From sequence record PQ310662.1: a DNA stretch of 64,000 bases; one strand, 5' to 3'. Below, in pieces: positions 2,557 to 39,228 of this stretch. Position numbers and translations under genes: made by a program. Position 1 is the stretch's first letter. Every line of letters starts with the position of its first letter. The notes below the pieces were generated by a model. It was not told the origin of the DNA. It did not search any database and saw only the letters and a list, made by a program, of their open reading frames with translations. The DNA comes from Escherichia phage Mimir124.

Positions 2557-3731
2557 TGAATAACATACCTACACATACCCTTACTGATGAACAGTTAATG
2601 AGGGAGTACGACAGGATCCAAGCCAACGCATTTCTTGGACGCAGCGCAGCGTTTTTTGGTTCATTGCTGTGTAGTCTTAAGTTCTCATGGAAACGTGAGG
2701 ACTGTCCTACTGCATGTACCGATGGGATAGAACTCCATTTCAACCCAGACTTCTTTATCTGGATGTGTCCCGATGCAAGAGAAACAGTGCTAATGCACGA
2801 ACTCTGGCATGTGGCATATCTGCACGGCATCCGTTGTGGAAGCCGTGACCCGGAAGTCTGGAACCAGGCATGTGACCACTTCATCAACCTTCAGTTAGAA
2901 GAAGATGGTTACAAGTTCACTGGTATCGACAAAGGCATTTGCAAAGACCCTCAATATAAAGGATGGGTCGAAGAAGACATCTACGATGACCTGATGAAGA
3001 ACCCTCAGAAAAGGCAGAAGCCGTCAGGGGGTGCTGGAGCAGGTCTTGCTGGCGACATGAAAGCTCCCTCTTCGGGGCAGTCCCAGGGTGCTGTTGTCAA
3101 CAACGTAGTACGTGCAATGCAAAGCCAGAAGATGGCTGGTGGAATGATGCCCGGTAAAGGTGCTGGTCGTATGGAAGAGGTAATTACCCAATTCCTTAAA
3201 CCAGTGGTTCCTTGGCAGGAAGTCCTGCTGAACTTCTTTACCGACATTGATGACACACACTATACGTGGGCCAGACCTAATCGTCGTTTCACTGACATCT
3301 ATCTACCTTCTCTGGAAGATGATGAAGGACGCTTACGACACTTAGCTTACTTTGAGGATGTATCTGGTTCTATTAGTAGTGCTGACTCTCTGCGTTTTAA
3401 CTCAGAGGTTGCCTACGTTAAGAGCCAGTTCAATCCTAAGAAGATGACCCTTATTACCTTCGACGATATTATCCAAGAAGAAATAGACATCACTGAAGAA
3501 GATACTTTTGAAGAGATTAAGATTACCGGTCGTGGTGGTACAAACCTTGAACCAGTGCGTGAATGGATTATTAAGAATAAGCCAACCGCTGCAATCATAT
3601 TCTCTGATATGTATGTTAAACCAATGGAAGAATTACCATTTGATATCCCTATCATCTGGTGTGTTCTGAATAATCCCAATGCTACCGTACCTTTTGGGGA
3701 GGTAGTTCATATCCATAAAGGAATGAAATAA
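2556..3731 (+). CDS. VWA-domain protein with N-terminal HExxH metallopeptidase-like motif (partner of MoxR-like ATPase)
   Basis: HExxH (MHELWHVAYLH) in N-terminal part; MIDAS-like DxSxS (DVSGSIS) in C-terminal part; start overlaps the HNH stop. Confidence 0.5.
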   Translation: MNNIPTHTLTDEQLMREYDRIQANAFLGRSAAFFGSLLCSLKFSWKREDCPTACTDGIELHFNPDFFIWMCPDARETVLMHELWHVAYLHGIRCGSRDPEVWNQACDHFINLQLEEDGYKFTGIDKGICKDPQYKGWVEEDIYDDLMKNPQKRQKPSGGAGAGLAGDMKAPSSGQSQGAVVNNVVRAMQSQKMAGGMMPGKGAGRMEEVITQFLKPVVPWQEVLLNFFTDIDDTHYTWARPNRRFTDIYLPSLEDDEGRLRHLAYFEDVSGSISSADSLRFNSEVAYVKSQFNPKKMTLITFDDIIQEEIDITEEDTFEEIKITGRGGTNLEPVREWIIKNKPTAAIIFSDMYVKPMEELPFDIPIIWCVLNNPNATVPFGEVVHIHKGMK

Positions 3732-4237
3732 TGGTTGTTAACGGTAATTCTCTATATCGTTCGTCTCAATTGCTGGATGTACCAGACCGTAAGGTATCCG
3801 AGCATGGTGTAAGTTATGGGCTAGGTGAAGCCGGTTATGATATTCGTATCAAACAAGACATCACCTTCTATCGCTTATTTGGGTTGATTCCAATGGTGAA
3901 AATCGTTGATGGAAAACAAGTATCACGCCATCTCGGTAAATTCGCATTGGCTTCAGCAATTGAGAAGTTCAATATGTCCCCATCCTGTGTAGCTATCGTT
4001 CATGATAAATCCACATGGGCAAGACGTGCATTATCAGTATTTAATACCGTAATAGAACCAGGGTGGAAAGGTTGGCTTACTTTAGAGCTTGTCTACCATG
4101 GTCGTAAGAAATTGCATATCCCGGCTGGTTCTGGGATAGCTCAAGTATTATTTCATCTGGTTCAAGAACCTGCTAATTACAATGGCAAGTATATGAACCA
4201 GGAAAACAAACCAGTAGCTGCTAGACCTTCAAAATAA
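3731..4237 (+). CDS. dCTP deaminase / dUTPase-superfamily protein
   Basis: Motifs GEAGYDIRI and GWKGWLTLEL resemble dCTP deaminase signature regions; 168 aa. Confidence 0.45.
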   Translation: MVVNGNSLYRSSQLLDVPDRKVSEHGVSYGLGEAGYDIRIKQDITFYRLFGLIPMVKIVDGKQVSRHLGKFALASAIEKFNMSPSCVAIVHDKSTWARRALSVFNTVIEPGWKGWLTLELVYHGRKKLHIPAGSGIAQVLFHLVQEPANYNGKYMNQENKPVAARPSK

Positions 4238-12956: not shown

Positions 12957-13436
12957 ATGCATAATTGGAATGAAATACTTACCTACTCTAACGGTAAGCT
13001 GTACTGGGCAATAAAACCGAAACGGGGTACACAAATAGGTGACCCCGTGGGAAATCCGAATAAAAACGGGTATTTACGTTTTCAATATAAAGGAAAACAT
13101 TATTTAGTCCACCGCATTGTGTGGGAAATGCACTATGGAGAAATACCCATGGGAATGCAGGTAGACCACATATGGCATAACAAGCTAGATAATAGGATAG
13201 AGAATCTTAGGTTAGTGACTCCTCTGGATAACCAGAGAAACAGAAGTAAAGCTCCAAAAAATACATCAGGAGTTACAGGTGTATGTTGGAGCAAACCAAG
13301 TGCTAAGTGGTTAGCGAGTATAACTGTTAAGGGTATTCGTAAACACTTAGGAATGTTTGACAATATAGAGGATGCTGCAAAAGCCCGTAAGCAAGCAGAA
13401 TTGCTTTACGGATTCCATCCTAATCACGGTAAATAA
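12957..13436 (+). CDS. HNH homing endonuclease with AP2 domain (copy 2)
   Basis: Same architecture as 2080..2556: NWNEILTYSNGKLYW, MQVDHIWHNKLDNRIENLRLVTPLDNQRN, SGVTGVCW..EDAAKARKQAE. Confidence 0.7.
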   Translation: MHNWNEILTYSNGKLYWAIKPKRGTQIGDPVGNPNKNGYLRFQYKGKHYLVHRIVWEMHYGEIPMGMQVDHIWHNKLDNRIENLRLVTPLDNQRNRSKAPKNTSGVTGVCWSKPSAKWLASITVKGIRKHLGMFDNIEDAAKARKQAELLYGFHPNHGK

Positions 13437-19211: not shown

Positions 19212-19709
19212 ATGAAACAGAGGATTGCCCATGACAGGCTTTTACAGCTTGTTAGTTATGACCCTATTTCCGGGATTTTTACTCGTAGGAATACCGGAAA
19301 GGTATCCGGTTACCTAATGAAGAGTGGCTACATTCAACTTCGTGTGGATAGCGTGTTGTACTATGGGCATATCCTTGCATGGTTTTATGTGCACGGTGTA
19401 TGGCCTACGGATAGGATTGACCATAAGGACAATATACGCCATCACAACTGGATAGATAACCTCAGAGAAGCGACCCACAAGCAGAATAACCAGAGTGCTG
19501 TTTTATCTAAAACAAACACATCTGGGTTTAAGGGTGTCTCCTTTTCAAAGAGTATGGGTAAGTACAGAGCAACTATTTGGGTTAATAGCAAACCAATTAC
19601 ATTAGGTTACACAGATAACCCAATAGAGGCTGCTGTTCTCTACGATGAAGCTGCTGTAACTCATTATGGTGAGTTTGCCAAAACCAACAAACAATTAGGA
19701 CTGTTATGA
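19212..19709 (+). CDS. HNH homing endonuclease with AP2 domain (copy 3)
   Basis: DRIDHKDNIRHHNWIDNLREATHKQN (HNH) and SGFKGVSFSKSMGKYRATIWVNSKPITLGYTDNPIEAAVLYDEAA (AP2-like). Confidence 0.65.
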   Translation: MKQRIAHDRLLQLVSYDPISGIFTRRNTGKVSGYLMKSGYIQLRVDSVLYYGHILAWFYVHGVWPTDRIDHKDNIRHHNWIDNLREATHKQNNQSAVLSKTNTSGFKGVSFSKSMGKYRATIWVNSKPITLGYTDNPIEAAVLYDEAAVTHYGEFAKTNKQLGLL

Positions 19710-25896: not shown

Positions 25897-26107
25897 TATC
25901 GTGAAGGGTTCTGTCAGAATCCTTTGAGATAGGAACTCCTATCATAACCTTTCTTAACTTAATCTTTGCCGTATGGCACTGACGCTAGGGGTGGCCCCCC
26001 ATCCGTCAGACAGACTATTTTAAGAATGGGTTATCTCAGAAAATGTAAAGCAACATTCGGGTTAATCAATGGCCTCTCCTATAGGGGCCATTTCTGAGTC
26101 TTAGGCT

Positions 26108-26135
26108 ATATCCCAAAGGTTAGTATCTTTGGGAT
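26108..26135 (+). repeat. perfect 10-bp inverted repeat (hairpin) with 8-nt loop
   Basis: TATCCCAAAG-gttagtat-CTTTGGGATA. Confidence 0.6.
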
Positions 26136-26577
26136 AAGGCTTCAGATCCCTTATCAAACTAGCTGCTCAATGTTGAGCATATTAATCAACCAAGCCCAAT
26201 AAGGGGGCGGGAGTTTAATGCCGGTAAGCATAAGCCTATCCGTCTACAACATCGAACTGTTAGATCTTACATGCAATATAGGGTATAAAGGGAGGACTCG
26301 TCCCCTCCCTCCTATTATGAACTATCGGAGAGTGCATTAGTTGATTAGCTGTGGAAGGTAGGCCGATGTCCACGAGCATGGCCCAGAGCTAGTGTACTCC
26401 CCGATAGTTTTCGTAGCGATTATGCGGTTTTTTAGAAACGAACCAATAACATAAATGCAAACGAAGAAGCGTATCTGATGGTCGCCTAACAGCGTAACCT
26501 CAGTCAGGAGTGAGTCGTCCTGATTATCAAACGACCGTGGAGTTCTCCCGTCCATGTATTAGAAACGGGGGACCAAT

Positions 26578-26701
26578 TACCAGTTGCACGAGATGGCTTG
26601 ACATGTTCAAGTTTGGACTAAGTGTGACACCGCTAGATTGGAGGGCTGCTGCGGTAAGCTATAGACTCCAACCGGAGGTTCGAATCCTTCACTGGTAACC
26701 A
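26578..26701 (+). ncRNA. tRNA-like element: perfect 7-bp acceptor-type helix plus canonical T-arm and encoded CCA, but about 121 nt long (non-canonical)
   Basis: TACCAGT (26578-84) pairs ACTGGTA (26691-97); T-arm GGAGG-TTCGAAT-CCTTC; discriminator A then CCA; interior cannot be folded into a standard cloverleaf by hand. Confidence 0.3.
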
Positions 26702-26777
26702 ATTCAAAGTAGCACTGTATCTTTAAATGTTTCCCGGCATTCAAAGAACCCACCGTGACAGTGCTACTCTGAATTGG
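26699..26777 (+). repeat. long inverted repeat: 19-bp stem with one A/C mismatch and 41-nt loop
   Basis: CCAATTCAAAGTAGCACTG (26699-26717) pairs CAGTGCTACTCTGAATTGG (26759-26777); starts at the CCA of the upstream tRNA-like element. Confidence 0.55.
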
Positions 26778-26805
26778 AAGAATTAAGACGGGTCTGGTTG
26801 AAGTA

Positions 26806-26899
26806 GATGGGGTTCGATTACCTCCGGTGGAGTAATCCACTAGCGTGCTTGGTGCACGAATAAGACTTAGTACTGGTGGTTCGATTCCATCCCCCGTTA
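26806..26899 (+). ncRNA. second tRNA-like element (T-arm and acceptor-type pairing present, cloverleaf unresolved, about 94 nt)
   Basis: T-arm GGTGG-TTCGATT-CCATC, 3' strand CCCCGTT pairs GATGGGG at 26806-12 with G-U pairs; interior has 4- and 5-nt hairpin loops, not a canonical anticodon arm. Confidence 0.2.
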
Positions 26900-27093
26900 C
26901 CTGAAGTCGCCAGGTACTTATGGCAAACGGGTAGTAACGAACTAGTCATTCGTCAAACGCCCACCCAATTATGAGTCAGCAAGAACGCCTTCACTTAAAC
27001 TTAAACAAAAAAGCTTAACGCAATAATTATGTAGGGGTATGTAAGGATTGCGAAGAAGGAGCCAGTTAGAGCCTGGCATGACTCACCTATTAT

Positions 27094-27167
27094 GTCCACT
27101 TAGCTTAGACTGGGAAAGCAACCGACTAATAATCGGAAGGTCACTGGTTCAAATCCAGTAGTGGATA
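27094..27167 (+). tRNA. tRNA, canonical cloverleaf; anticodon reads AAT (Ile-type, unusual A34)
   Basis: Acceptor GTCCACT/AGTGGAT (one G-U), D-stem GCTT/AAGC with GG in D-loop, anticodon stem ACCGA/TCGG(A) with loop CTAATAA, T-arm ACTGG-TTCAAAT-CCAGT; 74 nt, CCA not encoded. Confidence 0.6.
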
Positions 27168-27402
27168 CTTATTCAGCAGTAACATAGTCCTGATTGCATA
27201 GCACTCTAAAGACAACACTGGTAAGACAGTCCAGTGGCTGCTAATGTATTGTTATTCCCCTCGACGGGAATTTCGCTAGTGAAGGTAACACTTAAAAATC
27301 CAAACCTACGTCTTACTACTATCGGGCTATCAACCCACGGTCGCTTAACCCTGTAGTGATAGTAGTTTGACGGCCTGCCTCGTTGACTGCGTTAAAGTCA
27401 CT

Positions 27403-27439
27403 AAGTCCCTCGGAGCCGTCACTCTGGGGGACTTTTTTA
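27403..27439 (+). terminator. putative terminator closing the ORF-poor region
   Basis: AAGTCCC...GGGGACTT stem with long loop followed by TTTTTTATTT. Confidence 0.4.
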
Positions 27440-27609
27440 TTTGAGAACTGTTTATTGGACGATTCATATGATTGACCTAATCTTAACCCCGTATGCCTAT
27501 GAGGTAACGGATAACCGAGGACGTAAGTCTTTGGTGTTTGCAGGTAGCGTAGCCTATAACAACGCAGTCATGTTTAAATACAAACTTAAACCACTTTATG
27601 AGGCTAATA

Positions 27610-27990: not shown

Positions 27991-28109
27991 CAAACAGGTG
28001 TAAGGTAGTTTTTACCGAAAGGTACTGAACTACCCAACATGTGGTAAGGCTCTAGAAGCCAAAACAAAACAAGCCCTCCTAGTGAGGGCTTTATCATTTG
28101 AGGTAGTTA

Positions 28110-28597
28110 TGTCCGAAGAAATTAAAATTCACTTCACCAACTACATTGGAACCAAGTGTGTAAATGGTTTCAAGATGAACAAGGAAACATATTGCAAACT
28201 TCGTGGCTGGGATGTGCCTGCTAATGAAGACCCATTAGAAGAAGGTTACTTAGTAGAGTACCCAGACTCTAAACCTAACCATGAGCAATTCCGTGGTTAT
28301 ATTAGCTGGTCACCAAAAGCTGCATTTGAGGCTGCATATTGTGACGTAACTAAGGGTTGTACTTTTGGTCACGCAGTAGAACTTTTGAAGTCTGGTTTTA
28401 GACTGTCCCGTAAAGGCTGGAATGGAAAAGGAATGTATATCACCTTGGTACCGGGTAAATATTGGTCCATGGCTAAACATGAGAACTCCATTTGTGAGAA
28501 ACGGGATTGGTTGGGCATCAAAACTGTTGATGACCAGTTTATGCCTTGGGTTCCATCCCAATCGGATGTATTAGCTGAAGACTGGGTAATTCTGTAG
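28110..28597 (+). CDS. DUF2829 (Tad2-like) domain protein with about 70-aa N-terminal extension; candidate immune-signal sponge
   Basis: C-terminal 90 aa: GHAVELLKSGFRLSRKGWNGKGMYITLVPG ... PWVPSQSDVLAEDWVIL matches my recollection of the DUF2829 consensus (GWNGKGM, PW..SQ.DLLAEDW); RBS GAGGTAG before ATG 28110. Confidence 0.45.
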
Positions 28598-28878: not shown

Positions 28879-31800
28879 TTAATTTACCAGGTTCATCCAA
28901 GGGTTAAGGTTGTGAGCACGAAGCCCCTGACCAAAGCCCCATGAGTAATCCAGACTACCCTTAGCAGCAATGCTAAAGATGTTGTCCTGAATAGGTAAGC
29001 CAACGTTACCAAACATGGTAGGAGTTGGAGCCAACATAGCCATAGCAGCATGCACTGGGTTATTACGAATCATGGACACTGCAACTTTTGCAGAACGAAT
29101 CTTAAAGTTGTAGAACCACATTAAACCAACACTTTCCATATACCCACGGAAGCGACCAGGTAAACGATCATAGTTAATGAACTCTTCCGTTACACGTCCT
29201 AGTGCTTCTTCACGAGTCTTACCTTTACGCTGGGTCAATTCATCATAGATGATTGCTTTAGCGATAAAGTCAGAGTACTCAACGGTCTTCTGGATACCCT
29301 GGAATAAAGCAGTATCCTTAGTGATAAGTGCATAACGTCCGGCAGTACGTACTGACTTAGGTAGCTTATCTGCCAATTTACTCATGTACTCTTGAAGTTT
29401 ACCTTCGGTAATAAGGATGTCATCACGACCGATACCAGCGTCTGCAATTGAAGAGAACTCACCAGCTTCTAACAGAGGCCAGATACTCATACGCTTATGG
29501 CTATCAGTAATGGACTGAATCTCAGCCTTAAGTTTACGAATCTGGTTCGGGTTAGTAGCTGCACGTAATTCTGCTTCTGCATCTACCTGACGCAGACGAG
29601 ACTTCAGGTACTGGTTAATCTCAGCAGTTTTCTGTGGAATGCTCTTAGCAATGTTCTTAACCGGTACGCCACGGGCAACCATCTGGTAAAGGTTAGCCAA
29701 GAAGTTAACAGCAGGTACGACTACTGACTTAACTACAATCAGAGTCTTGGCTTCTTTAACTAAGTTCTGAACCAGGTTCTCACCACCCATAGTGTACTTA
29801 TAAGCACGGTTGCCAAATACACCCAGCATAGCTTTCTTGAAGGTATCCAGGGTTTCCGGGGACCAACGAGAATTACCAGACCAGGCATCACCAACAGAAG
29901 CTGCACGATAACCAAGTGCATCATTCAGCATGTCACGACGCACCCACAGTTCGCCATCACCAAACAGGCTTTCTGCTTTCCGTCGAGTTTCACTGTTCAT
30001 CAGCTTAAGTGCATCAGCAGTTACTGGGTCCAGTTTAGAACCAAGAAGGTTCACATACTGGGACTTGTTAGAGGCAGACATCTTTATGTCGTTCTCATAC
30101 ATACTATGCAGGTTCTCAATCAGCATATCGTTGAAACGCTGTGCCTTAGCCTCTTCCACCTGACGCCCACGCCATACACCAATTGCACGTGCAAGATGGT
30201 TCTCACCTTCAATATGCTTCAGCATGTTAGGGTCAATGGATTGCTCATAAGCAACTACATTACCTTTATCATCATATACAGGCAGGAGTGGTTCATTACC
30301 ACGTTCACCACGAGCCAGTGCTTTAGTGATACGGTCTACGGAAGGCTTGTCAGTGATACGACCTGCTACCATGGAACCCATCGTAAAGCCTGTACCCAGG
30401 TCTACACCACCAGCAGTATTACGAACGTTCTGTAGGATACCCTGTGAGAATGGAGCCTGTGCCTGTACTGGTGCAAAGTAATAACTACGTGCCGGACCAC
30501 GGTTAGCAGAACTACCTTGATAAGTACCCAGACGTACATAGGACTTCTCAATCAAATCAGCAAACTGACTATCTTCAGCAACAATCAGATTAACGCCCTG
30601 TTTAGTCTCACTAGGGATATGCCCTTTGTACTGGTTCAGGGTTGCACGCATATCAGATTTGGCTTTAGCCATTTCATCTTTACGCTGACCAACCAGATAA
30701 GAAGTAGCAAAGTCCATTCCCTCAACTTCTGATTGAGCCAGTGAAGATAACATCTCACGGTCGGACTTATTCATTGCTTCCAGTGCATACAGGGTAATCA
30801 GTTTATCCAGTTGAGCTACATCTACAGTAGAACGAGCAGCCTGACGTTCACCCAGCATACGAGAGATTGCAGTAGCATTACGCAGCAGGTTATTACCGAC
30901 TGTACCATTAATCATGTACTGAGCCAGTTGCTTAGATTTACGACTAATAAGAGGCCAGTTACGACCAGCTTGTTTTTGCAAATCTGCTTCCAGCTTATTC
31001 ACTTCACGGTCAACAATCTTCTGGTCAGTCAGCAGGTCACGGATTTCAGCCAGAGACATAGTGTCACGCAGAACAGCTAAGTCAGTTTTACCCATACCAG
31101 TGTGCATTGCTTTCCACTCATCTTTAGTCAGCTTACGGCTGAACTTAGATGCGATAGTGGTGGGCAGGTGTTCACGAAATTGTTGACGGTCTGCTTGTAC
31201 CTGTGCACGAACTGCTTTAATTAAATCATATACAGAAGCATTACTCTTAGTACGACCAGTTAGGTCATTAACTAAGTCATGGAAAGGTTGCCATACCTTG
31301 CCTTGGTTCATTGCAGCCATAACACCTTCAGCTACGATTACACCATTCTTCTCTGTAGCAATGGCAGCTACCAGTTGTGCAGCATGAGCAGCACCTTTAA
31401 CCAACGGGTTCTTGGTATTAGCTGCAACTTCACGAGCACTTTCTAAAGCACGGGTGGACAGTGCATCAATAGAATCCACCAGATACTGGTTAGCACGGTC
31501 GATAGCATTACCACTAGGTATAGCAACGGAATCATAAAATGACTGTGCATTGAGGCTGGTCTGCATGATTGTCTGAGCCAGTGCATCCGTCCCTTCCTGC
31601 ACATTGGTGGCTTTGGTATCACCTGTTACACGAGCATTCAGGCTAGACATTGCAGCAGTACCGATGTTAGTCAGCATTGCATCAATGGTATTACCAGATT
31701 TCTTATCTGCTTTCATAACAGGAATGTTAGCCAGTACATTACGTACTTCTTCACTAACCATTGCCAGACCAACAAAGGTAGGCAATAAGGAAGAACGACC

Positions 31801-34800
31801 CTGTGCATCAAACTCAATGTTGTTAGCACCCATGATGGTATCAAACTTCTGTTGAGCATAGTAACGGTCAGCAGGGTTAGTGCTATCAGGGTCAGCCATG
31901 AATGCTTCAACGGTCAGGTTCTTAGTGACGTGTGCGTAGTATTCCTGTGCACGAGAAAGAGCAGCCGGACTAATAGCAGCTTCAGTAGCCAAAGCAGCAA
32001 CAATGTTAGTGAACAGTCGCTGTTCCTGCATATTCATAGTGAAGCCATGAGCCTGAACATCACGAGTTACTTTAGTTGCATTCACTACTGCATCAGAGAA
32101 CTTACCCTTACGAATTACTTGCTGTACCGGTTCTGAACCAATGTAGTTAGTAATCAGCTTATCAAAGGTCTGCCCCAACTCTTCCAGACGGGTATTGTCA
32201 CCGTATGCTTTGTTATGGAACAGAGTAGTGTCTTTGGCTACAGCAGCAGTAGGAGCCTGCCCACGCATAACTACAGAAGAGTTAAACAGTAAGCCAGAGA
32301 ACATATCATCTGCGTTAGCAGGGGCTTTCTTACGACCAAATACCAGACGTTTGATTGCTTCATATACAGCCTGAACCATGGCCTTAAGTGCAGTGGTTTT
32401 CTTCTGCTTACCAATCAATTCACGGTTGGTTAAACCCCATGCCATGTACTCATTCAGTGCAGCAGCTTTAGCCATTGCTGGTTCAATAAAGCCATTAGAC
32501 AAGTGACCATTAATGGTATTGAGTGCATCAGCATATGCTTCACGTACTGCCGGGGATTCATCCTTAACATCCAGAGTACGGAACTGGTTCATCAGGTCTT
32601 CAATATTCTGGACTGCTTCATTAGAAGTACCTTCATAGTGAGCCAGTACAGATTCAAAAGTAGAAGCATGTACCAATTCATGAACCAGAGTCTCTAAGGA
32701 AGGAGTAACTAAGTAGATGGTCTTATCTTCAAAGTTAGTCCAGCCATATGCATTACCAGCTTCAGCAGCTTCAATATCTTCCGGTGCTGGGCGAGTAATG
32801 TTCTTCTCAATAGCATAAGCATCCAGTTGAGCAGGAGTACCATAAACAACCTTGTAGTCTTTAGCAGCAAGGGATTTCTGTACTTCTTTCAATACTGCTT
32901 GCTGTTCTGGGGACATCTCTTTAGCCAGCTTAGTGATAGCAGTATTGGACAGCAGACGTACACCGGACTTCAGTACACGACCTACCTTCTCCATTGCTGG
33001 TACTTCTTTCACTGGTTCTGCTTTAGCAGCACGTACTGCATCACGACGCTTATTTAATTCAGCATCAAACAGCTCGTTCAGCTTAGCTACTTGTTGGTCT
33101 ACAGTCAGACCTTCCAGAGAAATTTTACCGTTGTTCACATAAGGAGCACCTACAGCAGCCATCTGGTCAACAGTAGTCTGTACCTGGTTCATTACTTTGT
33201 GGCGAATATCTACACCCAGAGCAATGTTACGCAGATTACGTTCAATCTGTTCAGCACCAATACGTAACAGGTCATCAGTAGCACCTTCACGTTGGTCATA
33301 TTCCAGAGCAGATTTAGCGATAGCCTGTTTGGTTTCATCAGACAGTTTGCTGAAGTCTACGTTCTTCATGAACTTAGCGAAGGAGTCATAAACATTCTTG
33401 ATAGGGTTTCCTTGCCAAGAAGTATATACAGCCTCGTTAGCTTTACGACTTGCATCAGTAATGTCATTAATACCAATGTTCATACCATCAAAGATTTTCA
33501 GGGTATTCTTCGGAGCACCCTTCATAGTAGAAAGAGTCTGCATCATCATGCCATCACCAGTACCGATGGTCATAAATGGAATACCTGCAACACCTGCCTG
33601 TGAAGGAGCATAGATGCTCATTGGCACACGCATACGGTCATCTAAGTTGGTAGCCAGTACTTGGTTAGCAACATCAGTGTTCTCACTACCAGCAATGTAG
33701 AAAGTCTGTGAGCCAGTCTCAATCATTGGAGCCAGCGGAGATAAGCTATTCTGAATTTCATTCAGTTCTTTCTGCGTTAAGAAATCACCTTTCTTCCATG
33801 TTGAGTCTTTTTCTTTTTCTGCAAGTTTAGCCTGTACTGCCTGTTGGAACATATCCTGCAATACCAGAGACTGAATCTGGGTAGCCTTCTGTAAGTTCTC
33901 AGTAGAATGCATCAGACCTTCACCAACAGTATTTCGAATACCAGTACGCATTGGTTCAACGAACAGGTGAAGCATGTTCTCTTGTAAGTTCTTCAGGGCA
34001 TTACCAGATACAGTAAACTTCTGTGGGTCTAACTTACCAGTCAGAGCACCTTCTACCTGCTGAATAGATAACTCACCCTTACGCATAACTGGAACATTGC
34101 CAGTCAGTGCTTCCATAGAAGTAAGGAAAGTATCCAGCATAGCCTGAGCATCAGCCTCAGATGCAGCCTCCTTACCAAACATTGCCATAGCCGGGGAAAT
34201 ACTAGGGTCAGCAGCACGAGCTTGCAGAACGTCGCTGAAGCGTTCGTAGATGGTATCAGTAATTGCACTAACCATCTTGCCAGCAATACCACGAGCACCA
34301 GAACCATAGATGGTAATGGTTAGTGGGTTTTTAGCGATACCACGTTTCAGGTCCAGTGTACCGTCTTCATTCAGGTTAAAGTCTTTGATGAACAGGTCCA
34401 TTAACTTCTGGAGATGATTCATCTGGCTCATAACAGGAACGTTGTTACGGTAAGTACTACGTAATTCACCAAGTGCTTGTTGCAGACCATTAGTAGATGC
34501 TTCATACAGGTCAACACTGTCATCCTGTGAGCGATGCTCGTTCATAGTCTTACCAGCTTTACCGAAGAACAAACCACCCTTAGCAGTATTCTTAATCCAG
34601 TCTGGAGTGAACTTACCACCGGTCATTAATACCATTGCGTTGATTGGGCCATTGGTTACACCATCAGCTTCAACGTACAGTGGGGTATTAAAATTGGCAC
34701 GGTCATCGCTATTCAGGTAACGGGCATATTCCATCAGAGCCATGAGAGCTACGAATGATTTATCACCACCCAAAGAGGTCTTAAGAATATCCACTGCATC

Positions 34801-37800
34801 AACTGGTAAGTAACCAGACTTATCAAACTCAACCATCATATCAACAGCAGGTTTCAGGTTACCTTCCAGAGCTTTGGTCAGCTTTTCAGACATAGCTTCA
34901 CGGGACATGTTATGTACCTTGATGCCTAATGCCTGAGCCAGACCTAACTGAAAGTCAGAGAACGCTTGGCTGTTTTCATTACTCAAGTCAATAGTAGAGA
35001 AGGTTGGCAGAATTGCTTCACGAACCAGCTTACTGGATTGTGGGTTATTCTTACCAAGCATCTGCATACGACCTACACGGGTCATGTTGTAACCATAGTG
35101 AATAGGAGTATCCAGTCCATTCTCCTGTTCCTGAACCTGATTGATTACCCCAAACAAGGAATCGTATGCCATAGACACGGACAGGTTCTTACATTCCAAT
35201 GATTTAGCAGTGTTTACGTTCAGTAGTTCAGGATTAATCGTACCAGCACCCATCAGTTCCAGAATGTTGTCACGACCCAATGCTTCATAGAAATTAACCA
35301 TCGGCATGTGTACACGGAACTCAGTAGCCTGTTCTGCTTTAAGAGCAGCTTTCTGTTCTGGAGTATTCTTGACAGCCGGGTTACGTAACTGAGTTTGAGC
35401 CACGGAAGGAATATCATCCCCGAAGTACATTTTCTCTTCCGGTTCTACGAGGACAGCTTCCTCAATAGCAGTAGGGAAATTGTTAATGGCATCGTTATCA
35501 TCCAGCTTCTCAATGGTGTACAGACCTACAGTCTTATTGGAGGCTGGGTCAATTTCAGACACATCCAGCATAGACTCTTTAACTTCACCCATCTCAATAA
35601 AGGAAGACAGAATCTCTGTAGCCATTGCCATTGGGATACCCTTGGTATAACCCAGTGGTGCATTAGGATTACGATTCAAACCCCAATAGGATTCAATCTT
35701 TTGAGCCAGTGAGTTAGTAGCTTCAACCAGGGTCTGAGCATTCTCGAAGTCAGCCAGAATACCTTCAGGTAACAGGGATGCTTCTACACCAGTAATAGCA
35801 GCTACATCTTTCATGTCTTTAATGGCAGCATTCTGTGTAGCAGTCAGTCGCCATTGCAAACCAGCAAGTACAGCAGTCTCTAGCAACTGGTCATTGAACT
35901 TAAAGGTGTCACCATCCTTCTCAACGATATTCAGCAGTTTACCACCCACCCAACGGTTAGCTTCAGTACCTTCTGCAAAACGTTTACCAACATTCTTGTT
36001 AGCAAGGAACTTAGCTAGACGGTCAGAAAGAGTAGTCTTCAGGGTTTCACCAAAATCAAACAAGTCCTGATAACGCTTAATCACATCACTTGTGAGAGCG
36101 TTATTTTCTTTTTGAGTAAATGCTTCAAAACGAGCAACAGAAGACAGTGCTTTCTTAACATCAGTCAAAGGAGACTCAGAACCAATGGTACGAGACTTAG
36201 GTTCTTCCGGTAGGGTAAATGCTTTCAGGAACTGGTTCGGTGTCTTTTCATTGTTATAGACAGGGAACACTGTTTCCATTTCTGTTTTGGTTTCGACTAC
36301 TTCCTGGGTAGTATCTACTGTTTCAGACTTAGTAGTAGAGACTTCTTCTGTTTTTGGGCTAGTCTCCATAGTAGGAGCAGTCTTATTTTCTACCACTGGT
36401 TTAGCTTTAGGCTGTACAGTAGTAGTGTCCTCTTGCACTGGTGCAGGAGTTTCATCAACCTGATTCACTGGTTCATTGGTCTGTTGGGATTGAGCAGCGT
36501 CAAGATTGCCCTGACGGAACTCTTTAACTACCTGGGCAGCAGGCTTGTCCAGACGTGAATCCAATGGGGTAACTTTCACATGAGAAACATTAAGCTCCGG
36601 GTAAGCCGTAGCAAGTGCGTTAGCAATATCAGCTACGGTTTTGGCCTCCAGTCCTACTTGCTGGGCAAACTTAACAGACTTGGTATCGTAAGGATTGACA
36701 CCGAGTCCAGTACGACTACGTACCCATTCACGGGAAGGCGAGAGAGCCTGATAATGAACAGACTTATTCTTATCCGCATTCCCAGAAATCAGATGCTCAT
36801 TCAACGCTCCGACCTTATTCTGCATGTGCTGGGCGAACTTCATAAAGTCGCTCAGATAAGCGGAGGCCAAATCGAAGTTACCAGAGTTATACGCAGAACG
36901 AATGCGTTTCGCATGTTGCAACGCAGAGTACTGTCCTTCGTTAGAACGAGACTCATCGGTTTTAATTTGTTTACTAACAATGTCTTGAGGACGTAAGCCC
37001 AGTTCTTCTGCTTTAGCGTCGAACTCACGTGCACCCTGTAACAAGGCAGCAGCAGATTGCAGGGCAGCACGTTGATGATTCCCCAGTGTAATCTTACCTT
37101 CACTTGCATGTTTCAGAACCATGTTCACTGAATCTGCATCCAGTACTTCTGGGGATACATCAGCAGCCATAGCAATGTTGTTTGCTTGGGCTTGATTAGC
37201 TTCTTCAGTAGCTTTCAGCTTACCTGCTTCAGCCTGTTCCTGAATCATGGAATGGATAGCACGGTATGCACGGAGTACTTTAGGTGTATTCTGTACGTTA
37301 GCCATCAGGCCAGAGAACTGGTCTACGATAGTAGCAGCAGGGGAACCTTGTTCCAGATTAGCCAGAGCACCTGGGTCACGGTTAATGAAGCTATCCATAG
37401 ACATAATGTTGTCATACATCTGGATTGCAGCTTCCATTTGAACGTTAGGATCTTCAGCAGTATTAACCAGGTCAGCCATCTTCTGAATAGCTTCTACACG
37501 GTTAGTGGAACCAGAAACAGCTTCACGGATTACCAGGTTAGCTTGTTCCAACTCTACTGGGTCGAACTTCATTGCCTGAGTTAAGTCAGCAGCATACTGA
37601 GTAGCAGCAGCTTTCTCTTCTGGAGTGATATCCATTGCATCTACTGCTTCCTGTACAGTTGCTTGTGCCTGCTCTGCCTGAGCAGCAGCTTCCTGTGCAG
37701 CAGCGTTAACCGTAGCATCAGCTACAGGGGATGCTTGTTCATTACGCTTAGCAACTTCTTCCCCACGTTGAACCAGGATGTTAGTAAGAGGAGATGCAGC

Positions 37801-39228
37801 TTTTGCTAATGTTTTACCAACCAGAGAAGCACCAGCCAGAGTAGTACGTAGAGCAGGACCAGCAGAAGCACCAACTGCTTTAACAGTTGCACCTGGAGCT
37901 TGAGCAACCCCAGCACTACCGAAGCCATAAAGTGCACCAAGACCTGCTTGCTCACCAACCCCTTTGAGAGTGTCACGGGATGCATCAACATTTTCCTTGA
38001 TTGCACGGTTCTGGGCATACTGACCGAAGCCGGATTGAATACCCTCTTCTACAGTTTCACGGAGCATGTTAGAACCAGCACCAGCCAGTGAACCTACCTT
38101 AAGTGGGTTAAGTTCAAAACGAGATACCAGTGGGCCGGTAGCAGCAGCAACTGGAGCAGTTAAGCCAGCAGCAATAATACCTGTTTCAGATGCAGTCTGA
38201 CGACGTGCTTCATCAGGGGATAATCCATCAGCAATATGTTGTTGGTAAACAGGAGACTTACTTGCCAAATCTTGATGGGACATCTTCATGATTTCAGAAG
38301 CAGTCTGTTGGTATGCACCACCAGCTTCCATACCACCAATTGCAATAGCAGGTGCAGCAACACGACCAGCAGACAATGCAACCTGTGCAGGGCGTGAACC
38401 TAACTCAGCAGCTAAGGTAATACCCTTAACAGCTTTATCACCACCTACCATTACTTTACCAAGTGCAGATACACCACGGATAAGTGGACCACCAGTAAAG
38501 AGGGAACCAACACCTTCACTCAGTCCGTCGGAAGCAGCCATACCATTATCAAGTGTATTAGCAACAGAATCGAAAGCATCACGACCAATGCGAGACAAGG
38601 AGGCAACCAAATCGCTCTCCCCATTTTTGACGTCTTGTTCATAGAGTTTCTGGTTCTTTTGAGCAGAAATCTGGTTCTGATTCTGAACAACTTTACGGGT
38701 AGCATTCAGTGCATCAGATTGTAAATTGTGTACACCTTCATTCAACCAATCCATCCCGGAAGCAATGGATGCCCCGGCATTATCATTGACCAGACCTGTG
38801 CCAAGAGCAGCAATGCCCCCAAGGGTATTAGCAACACCAAGACCAACACCAGAAAGAGTATCGCCAAATGCTTCTGCGTTAGTACGTTGTTTAGATAAGT
38901 CCTGACGTACAACATCAGCAGCATTAGCTCGGCTATTAAGAATTTGTAGACCTTGCTCATTACCGTACTTATTAATGATTTCTAATGGAGAGGCTTGAGT
39001 GAAATCTGCCTGAAGTGAACCCGGTTCGAATGCACCGATTCCAAGATTACCTACTCGTCCAGTCTGGAGATTGTAAGCGTTCTCTGGGGTTAATTGGAAA
39101 GGGCTTTGCCCTTGTGCAGCTTGCTTCTGAGAGGTTGCAGTAGAGACATCGACTTGCTTAGCAGTAGTGATGCTGTCTGCGAAACCTGCCAGACGGTCAA
39201 ATGTTGACATAGCATGTTTCCTGTTCAA
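28879..39228 (-). CDS. giant virion-encapsidated RNA polymerase (N4 vRNAP-like)
   Basis: Single uninterrupted 3449-aa ORF, a size class essentially unique to N4-like phage virion RNAP; position at start of the leftward structural block. Confidence 0.75.
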   Translation of the reverse strand: MNRKHAMSTFDRLAGFADSITTAKQVDVSTATSQKQAAQGQSPFQLTPENAYNLQTGRVGNLGIGAFEPGSLQADFTQASPLEIINKYGNEQGLQILNSRANAADVVRQDLSKQRTNAEAFGDTLSGVGLGVANTLGGIAALGTGLVNDNAGASIASGMDWLNEGVHNLQSDALNATRKVVQNQNQISAQKNQKLYEQDVKNGESDLVASLSRIGRDAFDSVANTLDNGMAASDGLSEGVGSLFTGGPLIRGVSALGKVMVGGDKAVKGITLAAELGSRPAQVALSAGRVAAPAIAIGGMEAGGAYQQTASEIMKMSHQDLASKSPVYQQHIADGLSPDEARRQTASETGIIAAGLTAPVAAATGPLVSRFELNPLKVGSLAGAGSNMLRETVEEGIQSGFGQYAQNRAIKENVDASRDTLKGVGEQAGLGALYGFGSAGVAQAPGATVKAVGASAGPALRTTLAGASLVGKTLAKAASPLTNILVQRGEEVAKRNEQASPVADATVNAAAQEAAAQAEQAQATVQEAVDAMDITPEEKAAATQYAADLTQAMKFDPVELEQANLVIREAVSGSTNRVEAIQKMADLVNTAEDPNVQMEAAIQMYDNIMSMDSFINRDPGALANLEQGSPAATIVDQFSGLMANVQNTPKVLRAYRAIHSMIQEQAEAGKLKATEEANQAQANNIAMAADVSPEVLDADSVNMVLKHASEGKITLGNHQRAALQSAAALLQGAREFDAKAEELGLRPQDIVSKQIKTDESRSNEGQYSALQHAKRIRSAYNSGNFDLASAYLSDFMKFAQHMQNKVGALNEHLISGNADKNKSVHYQALSPSREWVRSRTGLGVNPYDTKSVKFAQQVGLEAKTVADIANALATAYPELNVSHVKVTPLDSRLDKPAAQVVKEFRQGNLDAAQSQQTNEPVNQVDETPAPVQEDTTTVQPKAKPVVENKTAPTMETSPKTEEVSTTKSETVDTTQEVVETKTEMETVFPVYNNEKTPNQFLKAFTLPEEPKSRTIGSESPLTDVKKALSSVARFEAFTQKENNALTSDVIKRYQDLFDFGETLKTTLSDRLAKFLANKNVGKRFAEGTEANRWVGGKLLNIVEKDGDTFKFNDQLLETAVLAGLQWRLTATQNAAIKDMKDVAAITGVEASLLPEGILADFENAQTLVEATNSLAQKIESYWGLNRNPNAPLGYTKGIPMAMATEILSSFIEMGEVKESMLDVSEIDPASNKTVGLYTIEKLDDNDAINNFPTAIEEAVLVEPEEKMYFGDDIPSVAQTQLRNPAVKNTPEQKAALKAEQATEFRVHMPMVNFYEALGRDNILELMGAGTINPELLNVNTAKSLECKNLSVSMAYDSLFGVINQVQEQENGLDTPIHYGYNMTRVGRMQMLGKNNPQSSKLVREAILPTFSTIDLSNENSQAFSDFQLGLAQALGIKVHNMSREAMSEKLTKALEGNLKPAVDMMVEFDKSGYLPVDAVDILKTSLGGDKSFVALMALMEYARYLNSDDRANFNTPLYVEADGVTNGPINAMVLMTGGKFTPDWIKNTAKGGLFFGKAGKTMNEHRSQDDSVDLYEASTNGLQQALGELRSTYRNNVPVMSQMNHLQKLMDLFIKDFNLNEDGTLDLKRGIAKNPLTITIYGSGARGIAGKMVSAITDTIYERFSDVLQARAADPSISPAMAMFGKEAASEADAQAMLDTFLTSMEALTGNVPVMRKGELSIQQVEGALTGKLDPQKFTVSGNALKNLQENMLHLFVEPMRTGIRNTVGEGLMHSTENLQKATQIQSLVLQDMFQQAVQAKLAEKEKDSTWKKGDFLTQKELNEIQNSLSPLAPMIETGSQTFYIAGSENTDVANQVLATNLDDRMRVPMSIYAPSQAGVAGIPFMTIGTGDGMMMQTLSTMKGAPKNTLKIFDGMNIGINDITDASRKANEAVYTSWQGNPIKNVYDSFAKFMKNVDFSKLSDETKQAIAKSALEYDQREGATDDLLRIGAEQIERNLRNIALGVDIRHKVMNQVQTTVDQMAAVGAPYVNNGKISLEGLTVDQQVAKLNELFDAELNKRRDAVRAAKAEPVKEVPAMEKVGRVLKSGVRLLSNTAITKLAKEMSPEQQAVLKEVQKSLAAKDYKVVYGTPAQLDAYAIEKNITRPAPEDIEAAEAGNAYGWTNFEDKTIYLVTPSLETLVHELVHASTFESVLAHYEGTSNEAVQNIEDLMNQFRTLDVKDESPAVREAYADALNTINGHLSNGFIEPAMAKAAALNEYMAWGLTNRELIGKQKKTTALKAMVQAVYEAIKRLVFGRKKAPANADDMFSGLLFNSSVVMRGQAPTAAVAKDTTLFHNKAYGDNTRLEELGQTFDKLITNYIGSEPVQQVIRKGKFSDAVVNATKVTRDVQAHGFTMNMQEQRLFTNIVAALATEAAISPAALSRAQEYYAHVTKNLTVEAFMADPDSTNPADRYYAQQKFDTIMGANNIEFDAQGRSSLLPTFVGLAMVSEEVRNVLANIPVMKADKKSGNTIDAMLTNIGTAAMSSLNARVTGDTKATNVQEGTDALAQTIMQTSLNAQSFYDSVAIPSGNAIDRANQYLVDSIDALSTRALESAREVAANTKNPLVKGAAHAAQLVAAIATEKNGVIVAEGVMAAMNQGKVWQPFHDLVNDLTGRTKSNASVYDLIKAVRAQVQADRQQFREHLPTTIASKFSRKLTKDEWKAMHTGMGKTDLAVLRDTMSLAEIRDLLTDQKIVDREVNKLEADLQKQAGRNWPLISRKSKQLAQYMINGTVGNNLLRNATAISRMLGERQAARSTVDVAQLDKLITLYALEAMNKSDREMLSSLAQSEVEGMDFATSYLVGQRKDEMAKAKSDMRATLNQYKGHIPSETKQGVNLIVAEDSQFADLIEKSYVRLGTYQGSSANRGPARSYYFAPVQAQAPFSQGILQNVRNTAGGVDLGTGFTMGSMVAGRITDKPSVDRITKALARGERGNEPLLPVYDDKGNVVAYEQSIDPNMLKHIEGENHLARAIGVWRGRQVEEAKAQRFNDMLIENLHSMYENDIKMSASNKSQYVNLLGSKLDPVTADALKLMNSETRRKAESLFGDGELWVRRDMLNDALGYRAASVGDAWSGNSRWSPETLDTFKKAMLGVFGNRAYKYTMGGENLVQNLVKEAKTLIVVKSVVVPAVNFLANLYQMVARGVPVKNIAKSIPQKTAEINQYLKSRLRQVDAEAELRAATNPNQIRKLKAEIQSITDSHKRMSIWPLLEAGEFSSIADAGIGRDDILITEGKLQEYMSKLADKLPKSVRTAGRYALITKDTALFQGIQKTVEYSDFIAKAIIYDELTQRKGKTREEALGRVTEEFINYDRLPGRFRGYMESVGLMWFYNFKIRSAKVAVSMIRNNPVHAAMAMLAPTPTMFGNVGLPIQDNIFSIAAKGSLDYSWGFGQGLRAHNLNPWMNLVN

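Follow-up and report, generated by a model that had tools for sequence, protein, structure and literature searches.

A conserved, optional tRNA-Ile gene with the anticodon AAT in a G7C-like relative of phage N4

The 64,000-nucleotide stretch of Escherichia phage Mimir124 analysed here (sequence record PQ310662.1; hereafter, the window) carries a real and conserved gene for a tRNA-Ile with the anticodon AAT, on the plus strand at 27094..27167 (74 nt up to the discriminator A73). The pattern of its conservation indicates that the gene is probably functional. The explanation that appears best, held here with moderate confidence, is that the product is a functional elongator tRNA-Ile, encoded in an optional cassette of the G7C-like N4 relatives, in which the wobble adenosine (A34) would stay unmodified and which would serve as a decoder dedicated to AUU codons.

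As an object, this tRNA is routine, being annotated in dozens of sister phages, and its value is that of a natural test case. Engineered A34 tRNAs are tolerated by the tested E. coli strains and yet are almost absent from bacterial genomes, for reasons that are debated. Here, a non-Arg A34 tRNA is under purifying selection in a coliphage and in the risky AUN box, beside the Met codon AUG. The question that it poses is what selection on A34 favours, Watson-Crick pairing with AUU or the avoidance of anticodon nucleases that recognise G.

Gene call, conservation and cassette slot

The sequence-only reading had described a canonical phage tRNA with an AAT anticodon, and this description is borne out by two programs. 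ARAGORN calls a tRNA-Ile with the anticodon aat at 27094-27168(+), and the Rfam model RF00005 (gathering score 29) matches 27094-27167(+) over its full length (model positions 1-71) with 62.6 bits and E=3.4e-11 for the whole 64-kb window, as a canonical type I cloverleaf in which all four arms are present; the gene is further delineated by its 14 homologous copies, namely the window copy, those of the GenBank relatives and those on IMG/VR contigs. In the Infernal alignment, the loop reads CUAAUAA, with A-A-U at positions 34-36. The anticodon A34-A35-T36 accordingly occupies 27128..27130(+), within the loop C32 T33 A A T A37 A38 at 27126-27132(+). Any other triplet as the anticodon, which the sequence-only reading had named among the outcomes that would refute its claim, is excluded, given that ARAGORN and Infernal both place AAU in a standard 7-nt loop. 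The diagnostic nucleotides that had been listed from the letters are all there, that is, T8 (U8), A14, the GG of the D-loop (G18-G19), T33, the purine A37, G53-T54-T55-C56 and C61. The window copy does not encode the 3' CCA, its A73 being followed by CTT. The thermodynamic minimum free energy fold, taken by itself, is not a cloverleaf (z=-1.9), which is no evidence against a tRNA given the score of the covariance model and the covariation among the relatives. No other tRNA is called by ARAGORN or Rfam in the window.

A 1.9-kb query around the gene matched 85 phage records at 80-99% identity, all of them G7C-like N4 relatives (Gamaleyavirus, Schitoviridae) with Escherichia, Shigella, Klebsiella and Salmonella as hosts. 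By its sequence, the window itself is a member of this group. The tRNA-Ile(AAT) is carried by ~38 Gamaleyavirus-type GenBank records, with 90-100% identity in the 41-nt segment that has the anticodon at its centre. The gene as such is known from the annotation of sister phages: the labels in the GenBank relatives are tRNA-Ile, tRNA-Xle and, in CU10EC, 'tRNA-Ile(aat)', and the tRNA-Ile(AAT) of the sister Gamaleyaviruses UE-S5a/M3/M6 is listed in one paper (PMC11927229). The A34 feature has not been analysed in the sister-phage records or papers. The sister genes (CU10EC, PhAPEC5, E20 and UE-S5a/M3/M6) are the same gene, in the same slot and with the same anticodon, at 93-100% identity, and the window copy differs from most of them in the pair 1-72, which is G1-U72 rather than G1-C72, and in the three nucleotides that follow A73, CTT rather than CCC.

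The loop CTAATAA, including AAT, does not vary among the 14 copies. In an alignment of the 11 distinct sequences, 20 of the 21 stem pairs are standard in every cell, the exception being A27-A43, which is unpaired in every copy of tRNA-Ile(AAT). Two pairs show compensatory double changes, 2-72 from UA to CG in three sequences and 31-41 from GC to AU in ZQ2. When the 3' partners were slid by 1-3 columns as a control, pairing was 16-46%, compared with 95% in register. The gene is 93-100% identical across the phages, and the adjoining non-coding modules are 75-95% identical or absent. Because the loop is invariant and every stem substitution preserves pairing, the tRNA is subject to purifying selection. 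On this comparative evidence, its conservation pattern is that of a functional RNA.

The gene resides in a slot bounded by two conserved junctions, the left one, GGCATGACTCACCTATTAT (27075..27093, plus strand), being the same flank in EC1-UPM, the window, PhAPEC7, IME11, G7C and Bas96, and the right one, CAGCAGTAACATAGTCCTGATTGCAT (27174..27199, plus strand), emerging from the comparison of the relatives. In EC1-UPM, a viable phage reported to lack tRNAs (PMC3853248), the slot is empty and the two junctions abut directly. The slot holds the Ile tRNA alone in the window and PhAPEC7, whereas IME11, UE-S5a, ST4 and AN24P2 have an extra, odd tRNA directly upstream of it; in G7C, it is filled by an unrelated insert of ~130 nt, and in Bas96, by another insert together with an 85-nt chimera that reuses the T-arm and the acceptor 3' half of tRNA-Ile(AAT). 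Judging from this distribution across genomes, tRNA-Ile(AAT) is an optional, dispensable cassette and not an essential gene.

Isoleucine identity, wobble adenosine and codon supply

Under the AUU-decoder reading, the tRNA would be transcribed rightward, within a non-coding array of ~1.6 kb that ends at the terminator at 27403-27442, processed by the host RNase P and 3' trimming enzymes, and provided with CCA by the host CCA-adding enzyme. The E. coli IleRS would charge it with isoleucine, as its identity elements suggest, and the wobble A34 would be left unmodified. AUU would therefore be read through Watson-Crick pairing of A with U, the reading of AUC would be weaker by a factor of about ten, and AUA would be essentially unread, so that the phage would gain an extra decoder dedicated to AUU.

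The determinants of bacterial tRNA-Ile are A73, C4-G69, U12-A23, G16, U20, U21, C29-G41, C/G34 (modified), A35, U36, A37 and A38 (PMC9976931); at position 34, the determinant is G or lysidine, and at position 37, A with the t6A modification (PMC9976931 Table 1). The phage tRNA has A73, A35, U36, A37 and A38 as well as the stem determinants C4-G69, U12-A23 and C29-G41, the last of which is replaced by U-G in one relative, CU10EC. It departs from the set at position 34, which is A, and in the D-loop AGACUGGGA, which by our own numbering has A16, G20 and A21 rather than G16, U20 and U21. These D-loop positions are described as discrete determinants crucial to isoleucylation and editing (PMC9976931), so that the efficiency of charging, or editing, could be affected. 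The lack of G or lysidine at position 34 and of G16, U20 and U21, along with the unencoded CCA, stands against the AUU-decoder reading. Isoleucine is the only sensible identity because AAU fits the anticodon rule of no other synthetase, and from the remaining elements, efficient charging with isoleucine by E. coli IleRS would be expected.

The closest host-type gene among 5,426 E. coli genomes is an annotated tRNA-Ile with a CAT anticodon (81.7% identity over 59 nt), that is, a tRNA-Ile2 of the lysidine type with the same sequence as ileZ in Stx2 phages. The loop context CGACU-NAU-AAUCG is common to tRNA-Ile(AAT) and the tRNA-Ile2 (CAU) genes, both ileZ and those on E. coli chromosomes and prophages. 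An IMG/VR tRNA with a CAT anticodon (IMGVR_UViG_3300042328_001563, viral tRNA cluster) is even closer in this part: the central 25 nt, GCAACCGACT-N-ATAATCGGAAGGTC, are identical except for position 34, and the A27-A43 mismatch is present as well, as in the window tRNA. The GAT-type phage tRNAs have about equal overall similarity to tRNA-Ile(AAT) and differ in the loop. Because the CAT tRNA is identical around the loop and the loops of the GAT-type differ, the likelier origin, as far as such comparisons can tell, is a CAU-type tRNA that read AUA and in which C34 was replaced by A. The phage tRNA is not itself a tRNA-Ile2 of the lysidine type, with A34 in 14 of the 14 copies; only the body resembles tRNA-Ile2. 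TilS cannot make lysidine on it because position 34 is A, not C, and with this replacement, the codon read would shift from AUA to AUU. Three unrelated phages encode a tRNA-Ile(GAT) with the loop CCGATAA, namely Erwinia phage Frozen (L012:54-129), Klebsiella phage VAC51 (L013:54-129) and Vibrio phage Pontus (L014:54-129), in which position 33 is occupied by C, compared with the near-universal U.

The loop of E. coli tRNA-Arg2 is CU-ACG-AA, so that the AAU member of a published series of tRNAs built with this loop would have the very loop of the window tRNA, CUAAUAA. In that series, Schmitt et al. placed all ANN anticodons in one M. jannaschii tRNA body, with the loop outside the anticodon being that of E. 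coli tRNA-Arg2 (PMC11066159). In living E. coli, the AAU tRNA reassigned AUU at 4.5%, AUC at 0.43% and AUG at 0.27%, with AUA below detection; inosine was found only for the anticodons ACG, AUG and AAG, and none was seen with AAU or the seven other tested anticodons in which positions 35 and 36 both depart from ACG (PMC11066159). The extension of this result to the phage tRNA is by analogy from a different tRNA body, and the absence of inosine would thus be a prediction for tRNA-Ile(AAT). The TadA substrate loop is C32-U33-A34-C35-G36-A37-A38, or tolerated ANG variants thereof, whereas CUAAUAA has A-U rather than C-G at positions 35-36. Pfam scans of 30 phage ORFs (large late proteins and ORFs <70 aa excluded) found no CDA/TadA-type tRNA deaminase, the only deaminase match being a dUTPase-fold dCTP deaminase (3731-4237), and a phage-encoded tRNA adenosine deaminase was accordingly rejected. 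With AAU unedited and AUU-selective in E. coli and no phage deaminase found, the best reading is therefore that A34 is probably unmodified and the tRNA specific for AUU.

The sequence-only reading had also called such an A34 rare in bacteria, and rightly so, considering that non-ACG ANN genes account for 695 of 246,393 bacterial tRNA genes (preprint 10.64898/2026.05.15.725136). [quoted passage not shown] The eukaryotic tRNA-Ile(IAU), encoded by an AAU gene edited by ADAT2/3, shares both the encoded anticodon and the isoleucine identity, but the eukaryotic ADAT accepts many anticodons, whereas the E. coli TadA left AAU unedited in the published test.

Codon usage was calculated from 56 phage ORFs (19,256 codons) and compared with that in a 42-gene sample of E. 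coli K-12. The fractions of the Ile codons ATT, ATC and ATA are 0.57, 0.29 and 0.14 in the phage (33.6, 16.8 and 8.2 per 1000), compared with 0.45, 0.51 and 0.04 in the E. coli sample (26.3, 29.7 and 2.4 per 1000). Thus, AUU is the most common Ile codon of the phage, with twice the frequency of AUC, which fits a U-specific decoder and implies that the tRNA would give the phage an additional decoder for its main Ile codon. A special U-ending bias of Ile and Cys that would match A34 tRNAs was rejected as specific evidence because the preference for U-ending codons is genome-wide, at +0.2 to +0.4 in most codon families of the phage. Furthermore, Ile usage is the same in phages that lack the gene (G7C and EC1-UPM) and in those that carry it (the window and Moonfish), with ATT at 0.59-0.61, ATC at 0.29-0.32 and ATA at 0.09-0.12, so that codon usage is not coupled to the presence of the tRNA. 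The link to codon supply is therefore loose. The codon-usage compensation suggested by the sequence-only reading is therefore plausible in a weak form and for AUU only, codon supply plausibly being a benefit rather than a tight dependency. Even this gain is uncertain, considering that AUU is not a rare codon in E. coli and is decoded there by the host's own tRNA-Ile(GAU).

Alternative roles of the tRNA

The explanation that ranks second after the AUU-decoder reading, possible but rather unlikely, shares the decoding scheme with the latter and differs in the reason for the retention of A34: an anticodon without G would escape anticodon nucleases, of host or prophage origin, that cut tRNA-Ile(GAU), and AUU codons would still be translated once the host tRNA is destroyed. 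Phage tRNAs have been proposed to evade tRNA-targeting defences through changes in the anticodon loop (PMC10264068, where tRNA-Ile is not mentioned), and like the nuclease-evading tRNAs of mycobacteriophage and T5 considered in that work, tRNA-Ile(AAT) is phage-borne and has an anticodon region unlike that of the host isoacceptor. The nucleotide that differs is proposed to be recognised by at least one nuclease, HepS. Unlike in the mycobacteriophage and T5 tRNAs, the change lies within the anticodon itself and alters the codons read, and evasion is here a candidate function. A role in anti-defence is consistent with the presence/absence polymorphism of the gene, which is typical of accessory genes, with the proximity of a Tad2-like anti-Thoeris gene (28109-28597, PF11195), and with the adjoining tRNA-like modules that have aberrant anticodon loops, such as the 6-nt loop of the adjacent tRNA in the relatives; besides, identical codon usage with and without the gene suits insurance better than routine supply. 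However, the trigger of HepS is the siphovirus tail-tip protein J, not N4-like podoviruses, a nuclease active against these podoviruses is not known, and AUC, with 29% of the Ile codons, would be served poorly by a decoder limited to AUU.

Inosine-dependent decoding, which the sequence-only reading had raised for the A34 anticodon, comes out as disfavoured and is considered improbable. In this case, the host TadA would convert A34 to inosine, and the tRNA would read AUU, AUC and AUA in the manner of the eukaryotic tRNA-Ile(IAU), supplying the over-used AUA without lysidine. With 8.2 per 1000 vs 2.4 in the E. coli sample, AUA is indeed 3.4 times more common in the phage, the body of the tRNA is that of the AUA-reading tRNA-Ile2 lineage, C32, U33, A37 and A38 are common to its loop and the TadA substrate, and the abstract of a preprint states that ANN tRNAs of two-fold degenerate boxes are modified to I34 in E. 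coli (preprint 10.64898/2026.05.15.725136). The sole direct case of I34 in that preprint, however, is Phe-AAA, not Ile, and was deduced from the proportions of YAMAT-seq reads. Furthermore, TadA is described as very specific for the anticodon loop of tRNA-Arg2, AAU differs from ACG at positions 35 and 36 and belongs to the class that remained unedited, with no AUA reading detected, in E. coli (PMC11066159), and the 30 ORFs scanned yielded no tRNA deaminase of the phage itself.

A role outside decoding is given a similarly low probability; the tRNA would act as an RNase P/RNase Z processing signal through which the long non-coding transcript is cut into its modules, as a decoy for tRNA-binding factors of the host, or as a recombination module within the cassette array. 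The surroundings are compatible with such a role, being a head-to-tail array of tRNA-like modules, several of which end in ACCA, with similar ...CCA(A/T)ATT... junctions; the modules of this array are gained and lost independently, and the Bas96 chimera reuses the same T-arm and acceptor 3' half. Yet, a signal or a decoy needs neither an invariant 7-nt loop with a sense anticodon nor the IleRS elements A35-A38, A73, C4-G69, U12-A23 and C29-G41, and in tRNA-Ile(AAT), unlike the neighbouring modules, the four arms are all canonical. Finally, a decaying or chance tRNA-like sequence devoid of function, for which one could cite the dispensability of the gene in some relatives, the A27-A43 mismatch and the unencoded CCA, is hardly credible and largely refuted by the conservation pattern, with an Rfam score of 62.6 bits (E=3e-11), 97% identity over the 11 distinct copies between flanks with 75-95% identity, all stem changes compensated, and the mismatch itself conserved, also in the CAT-type relative.

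The surrounding RNA mosaic

The rightward gene block has the tRNA gene at its right end, where ~1.6 kb (roughly 25900-27450) contain no convincing ORFs. This rightward non-coding unit is closed by a strong hairpin with a T-run, resembling an intrinsic terminator (27403..27442, plus strand; 13-bp stem with 7 GC pairs), and the annotations of PhAPEC7 and G7C have a terminator at the corresponding position. Downstream of the terminator are a gene of the gp49/Sf6-gp66 family and the Tad2-like gene mentioned above; further on, the minus-strand ORF at 28879-39228 (3449 aa) is the counterpart of the gene that is annotated as virion RNA polymerase in the relatives. A scan of the region for sigma-70 promoters, in which N4-type promoters were outside the scope, gave no more matches than shuffled sequence. 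Between the tRNA and the terminator (27168-27402), there are ~235 nt of non-coding sequence with conserved hairpins, for example, CACTGG...CCAGTG and TTCCC...GGGAA, and in the relatives, the equivalent region shows a weak His_leader match (27-29 bits vs the threshold of 49).

The ORF-poor stretch is a mosaic of modules, each present or absent independently among the relatives. Module A (26578..26701, plus strand; 124 nt) is tRNA-like, with a 7-bp acceptor stem TACCAGT/ACTGGTA, a canonical T-arm GGAGG-TTCGAAT-CCTTC and an encoded A-CCA, the anticodon arm being replaced by a large structured insert; in ECBP1, compensatory changes are seen in the acceptor stem (TATCAGT/ACTGATA) and in the T-stem (GGGGG/CCCTC). 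Module B (26787..26898, plus strand), also tRNA-like, has a closing stem GACGGG/CCCGTT, two T-arm-like hairpins (TTCGATT) and internal hairpins, with double compensatory changes relative to UE-S5a (GGTGGG/CCCACT, and GTGGA/TCCAC to GTAGA/TCTAC). Neither module is called by ARAGORN or Rfam, and the sole database signal for module B is a weak match to the tRNA-Sec model (19 bits).

Several further tRNA-like sequences were noticed in the relatives. The odd tRNA directly upstream of tRNA-Ile(AAT), which is not found in the window, occurs at L002:2113-2185, L004:1898-1970, L017:1404-1476 and L020:1404-1479 of the respective stretches; its acceptor stem, D-arm and T-arm are normal and ACCA is encoded, with an anticodon loop of 6 nt (AAACCA or AAACTA). 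It scores 41-43 bits with the Rfam tRNA model, is reported by ARAGORN as 'tRNA-???' and is labelled Thr, OTHER or Undet in the records. The Bas96 chimera (L003:2313-2397) is annotated as tRNA-Val and has the acceptor stem and T-arm of tRNA-Ile(AAT), a different D-arm and an enlarged anticodon region (~30 nt), with no ARAGORN call. A tRNA-Cys(ACA) is found in relatives at L005:11404-11482 and L002:1277-1356 and is deleted in the window between ~26575 and 26578; its T-arm weakly matches the 3' end of the tmRNA model. As a candidate for a second clean A34 tRNA, it was downgraded: the pairing of its anticodon stem is poor, only the ECBP1 copy is called by ARAGORN, and for the UE-S5a copy, the Rfam tRNA model gave no match at E<=1.

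Upstream of these modules, 26448..26489 (plus strand, within the context 26395-26500) comprise a tmRNA-style resume context, AACATAAAT, and, following it, a tag frame that reads GCA AAC GAA GAA GCG TAT CTG ATG GTC GCC TAA and would encode ANEEAYLMVA followed by a stop. The tag of the E. coli tmRNA is ANDENYALAA. The relatives have ANNETYLMVA with a single stop and ANDDVVLMAA with two; the copies of the latter show only four differences, from stop to stop, all of them silent. Eight codons upstream, the tag frame contains a TAG, which is not followed by a start codon. A complete tmRNA in the window was rejected: ARAGORN found none at the default or 95% thresholds, and at the 85% threshold, it recovered the tag with inconsistent tRNA-like domains; matches to the Rfam permuted-tmRNA model are below the gathering score of 47 (23 bits for the window, 33-34 bits for the relatives); and within 800 nt upstream of the window tag, there is neither the canonical GGGGCUG...UUCGAC nor a T-arm-NCCA acceptor piece. 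The tag block has no significant nucleotide similarity to E. coli ssrA, and its recent capture from that gene was therefore rejected as well.

A degenerate pattern search located the tag block on 108 IMG/VR stretches, in 11 tag variants. In 12 of these 108 stretches, ARAGORN identified a complete permuted tmRNA at default thresholds, and in the two of the 12 whose full sequence was inspected, both the acceptor piece (...CCAGCTCCACCA) and the 5' end (GGGGCTGA...TTCGAC) are canonical; most copies of the tag block, including every one in Gamaleyavirus, have no such acceptor or 5' parts within 800 nt. By BLAST, 321 GenBank phage records contain relatives of the 106-nt block, which is almost never annotated; they come from N4-like, T1-like, Vi01-like and roughly 89-kb Salmonella phages as well as P1. 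Phage tmRNAs are known as a class: the 2025 tmRNA database lists 79 unique ones, among them a form without the CDS that inhibits the host tmRNA (PMC11915505). The surrounding RNA mosaic, and in particular this unannotated tmRNA-like tag template, may be a more interesting lead than the tRNA. One could speculate that tRNA-Ile(AAT) belongs to a phage kit of translation-rescue or anti-defence RNAs, in which the tRNA with its G-less anticodon would survive the anticodon nucleases of the host, carried in a swappable array together with further non-canonical tRNA-like RNAs and a tmRNA-style tag template that is exchanged among lytic enterobacterial phages of several families; such a broad scenario is unlikely to hold as a whole.

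Upstream of the tag block, positions 26321-26333 can form a 13-bp long-range stem with 26396-26408 (ACTATCGGAGAGT / ACTCCCCGATAGT); in the relatives, the sequence of this stem differs and the complementarity is kept (CTATCAATGAGT... / ...ACTCTTTGATAG). The rightward gene block also contains three paralogous homing-endonuclease-like ORFs with HNH_3 and AP2 domains, at 2080-2556, 12957-13436 and 19212-19709.
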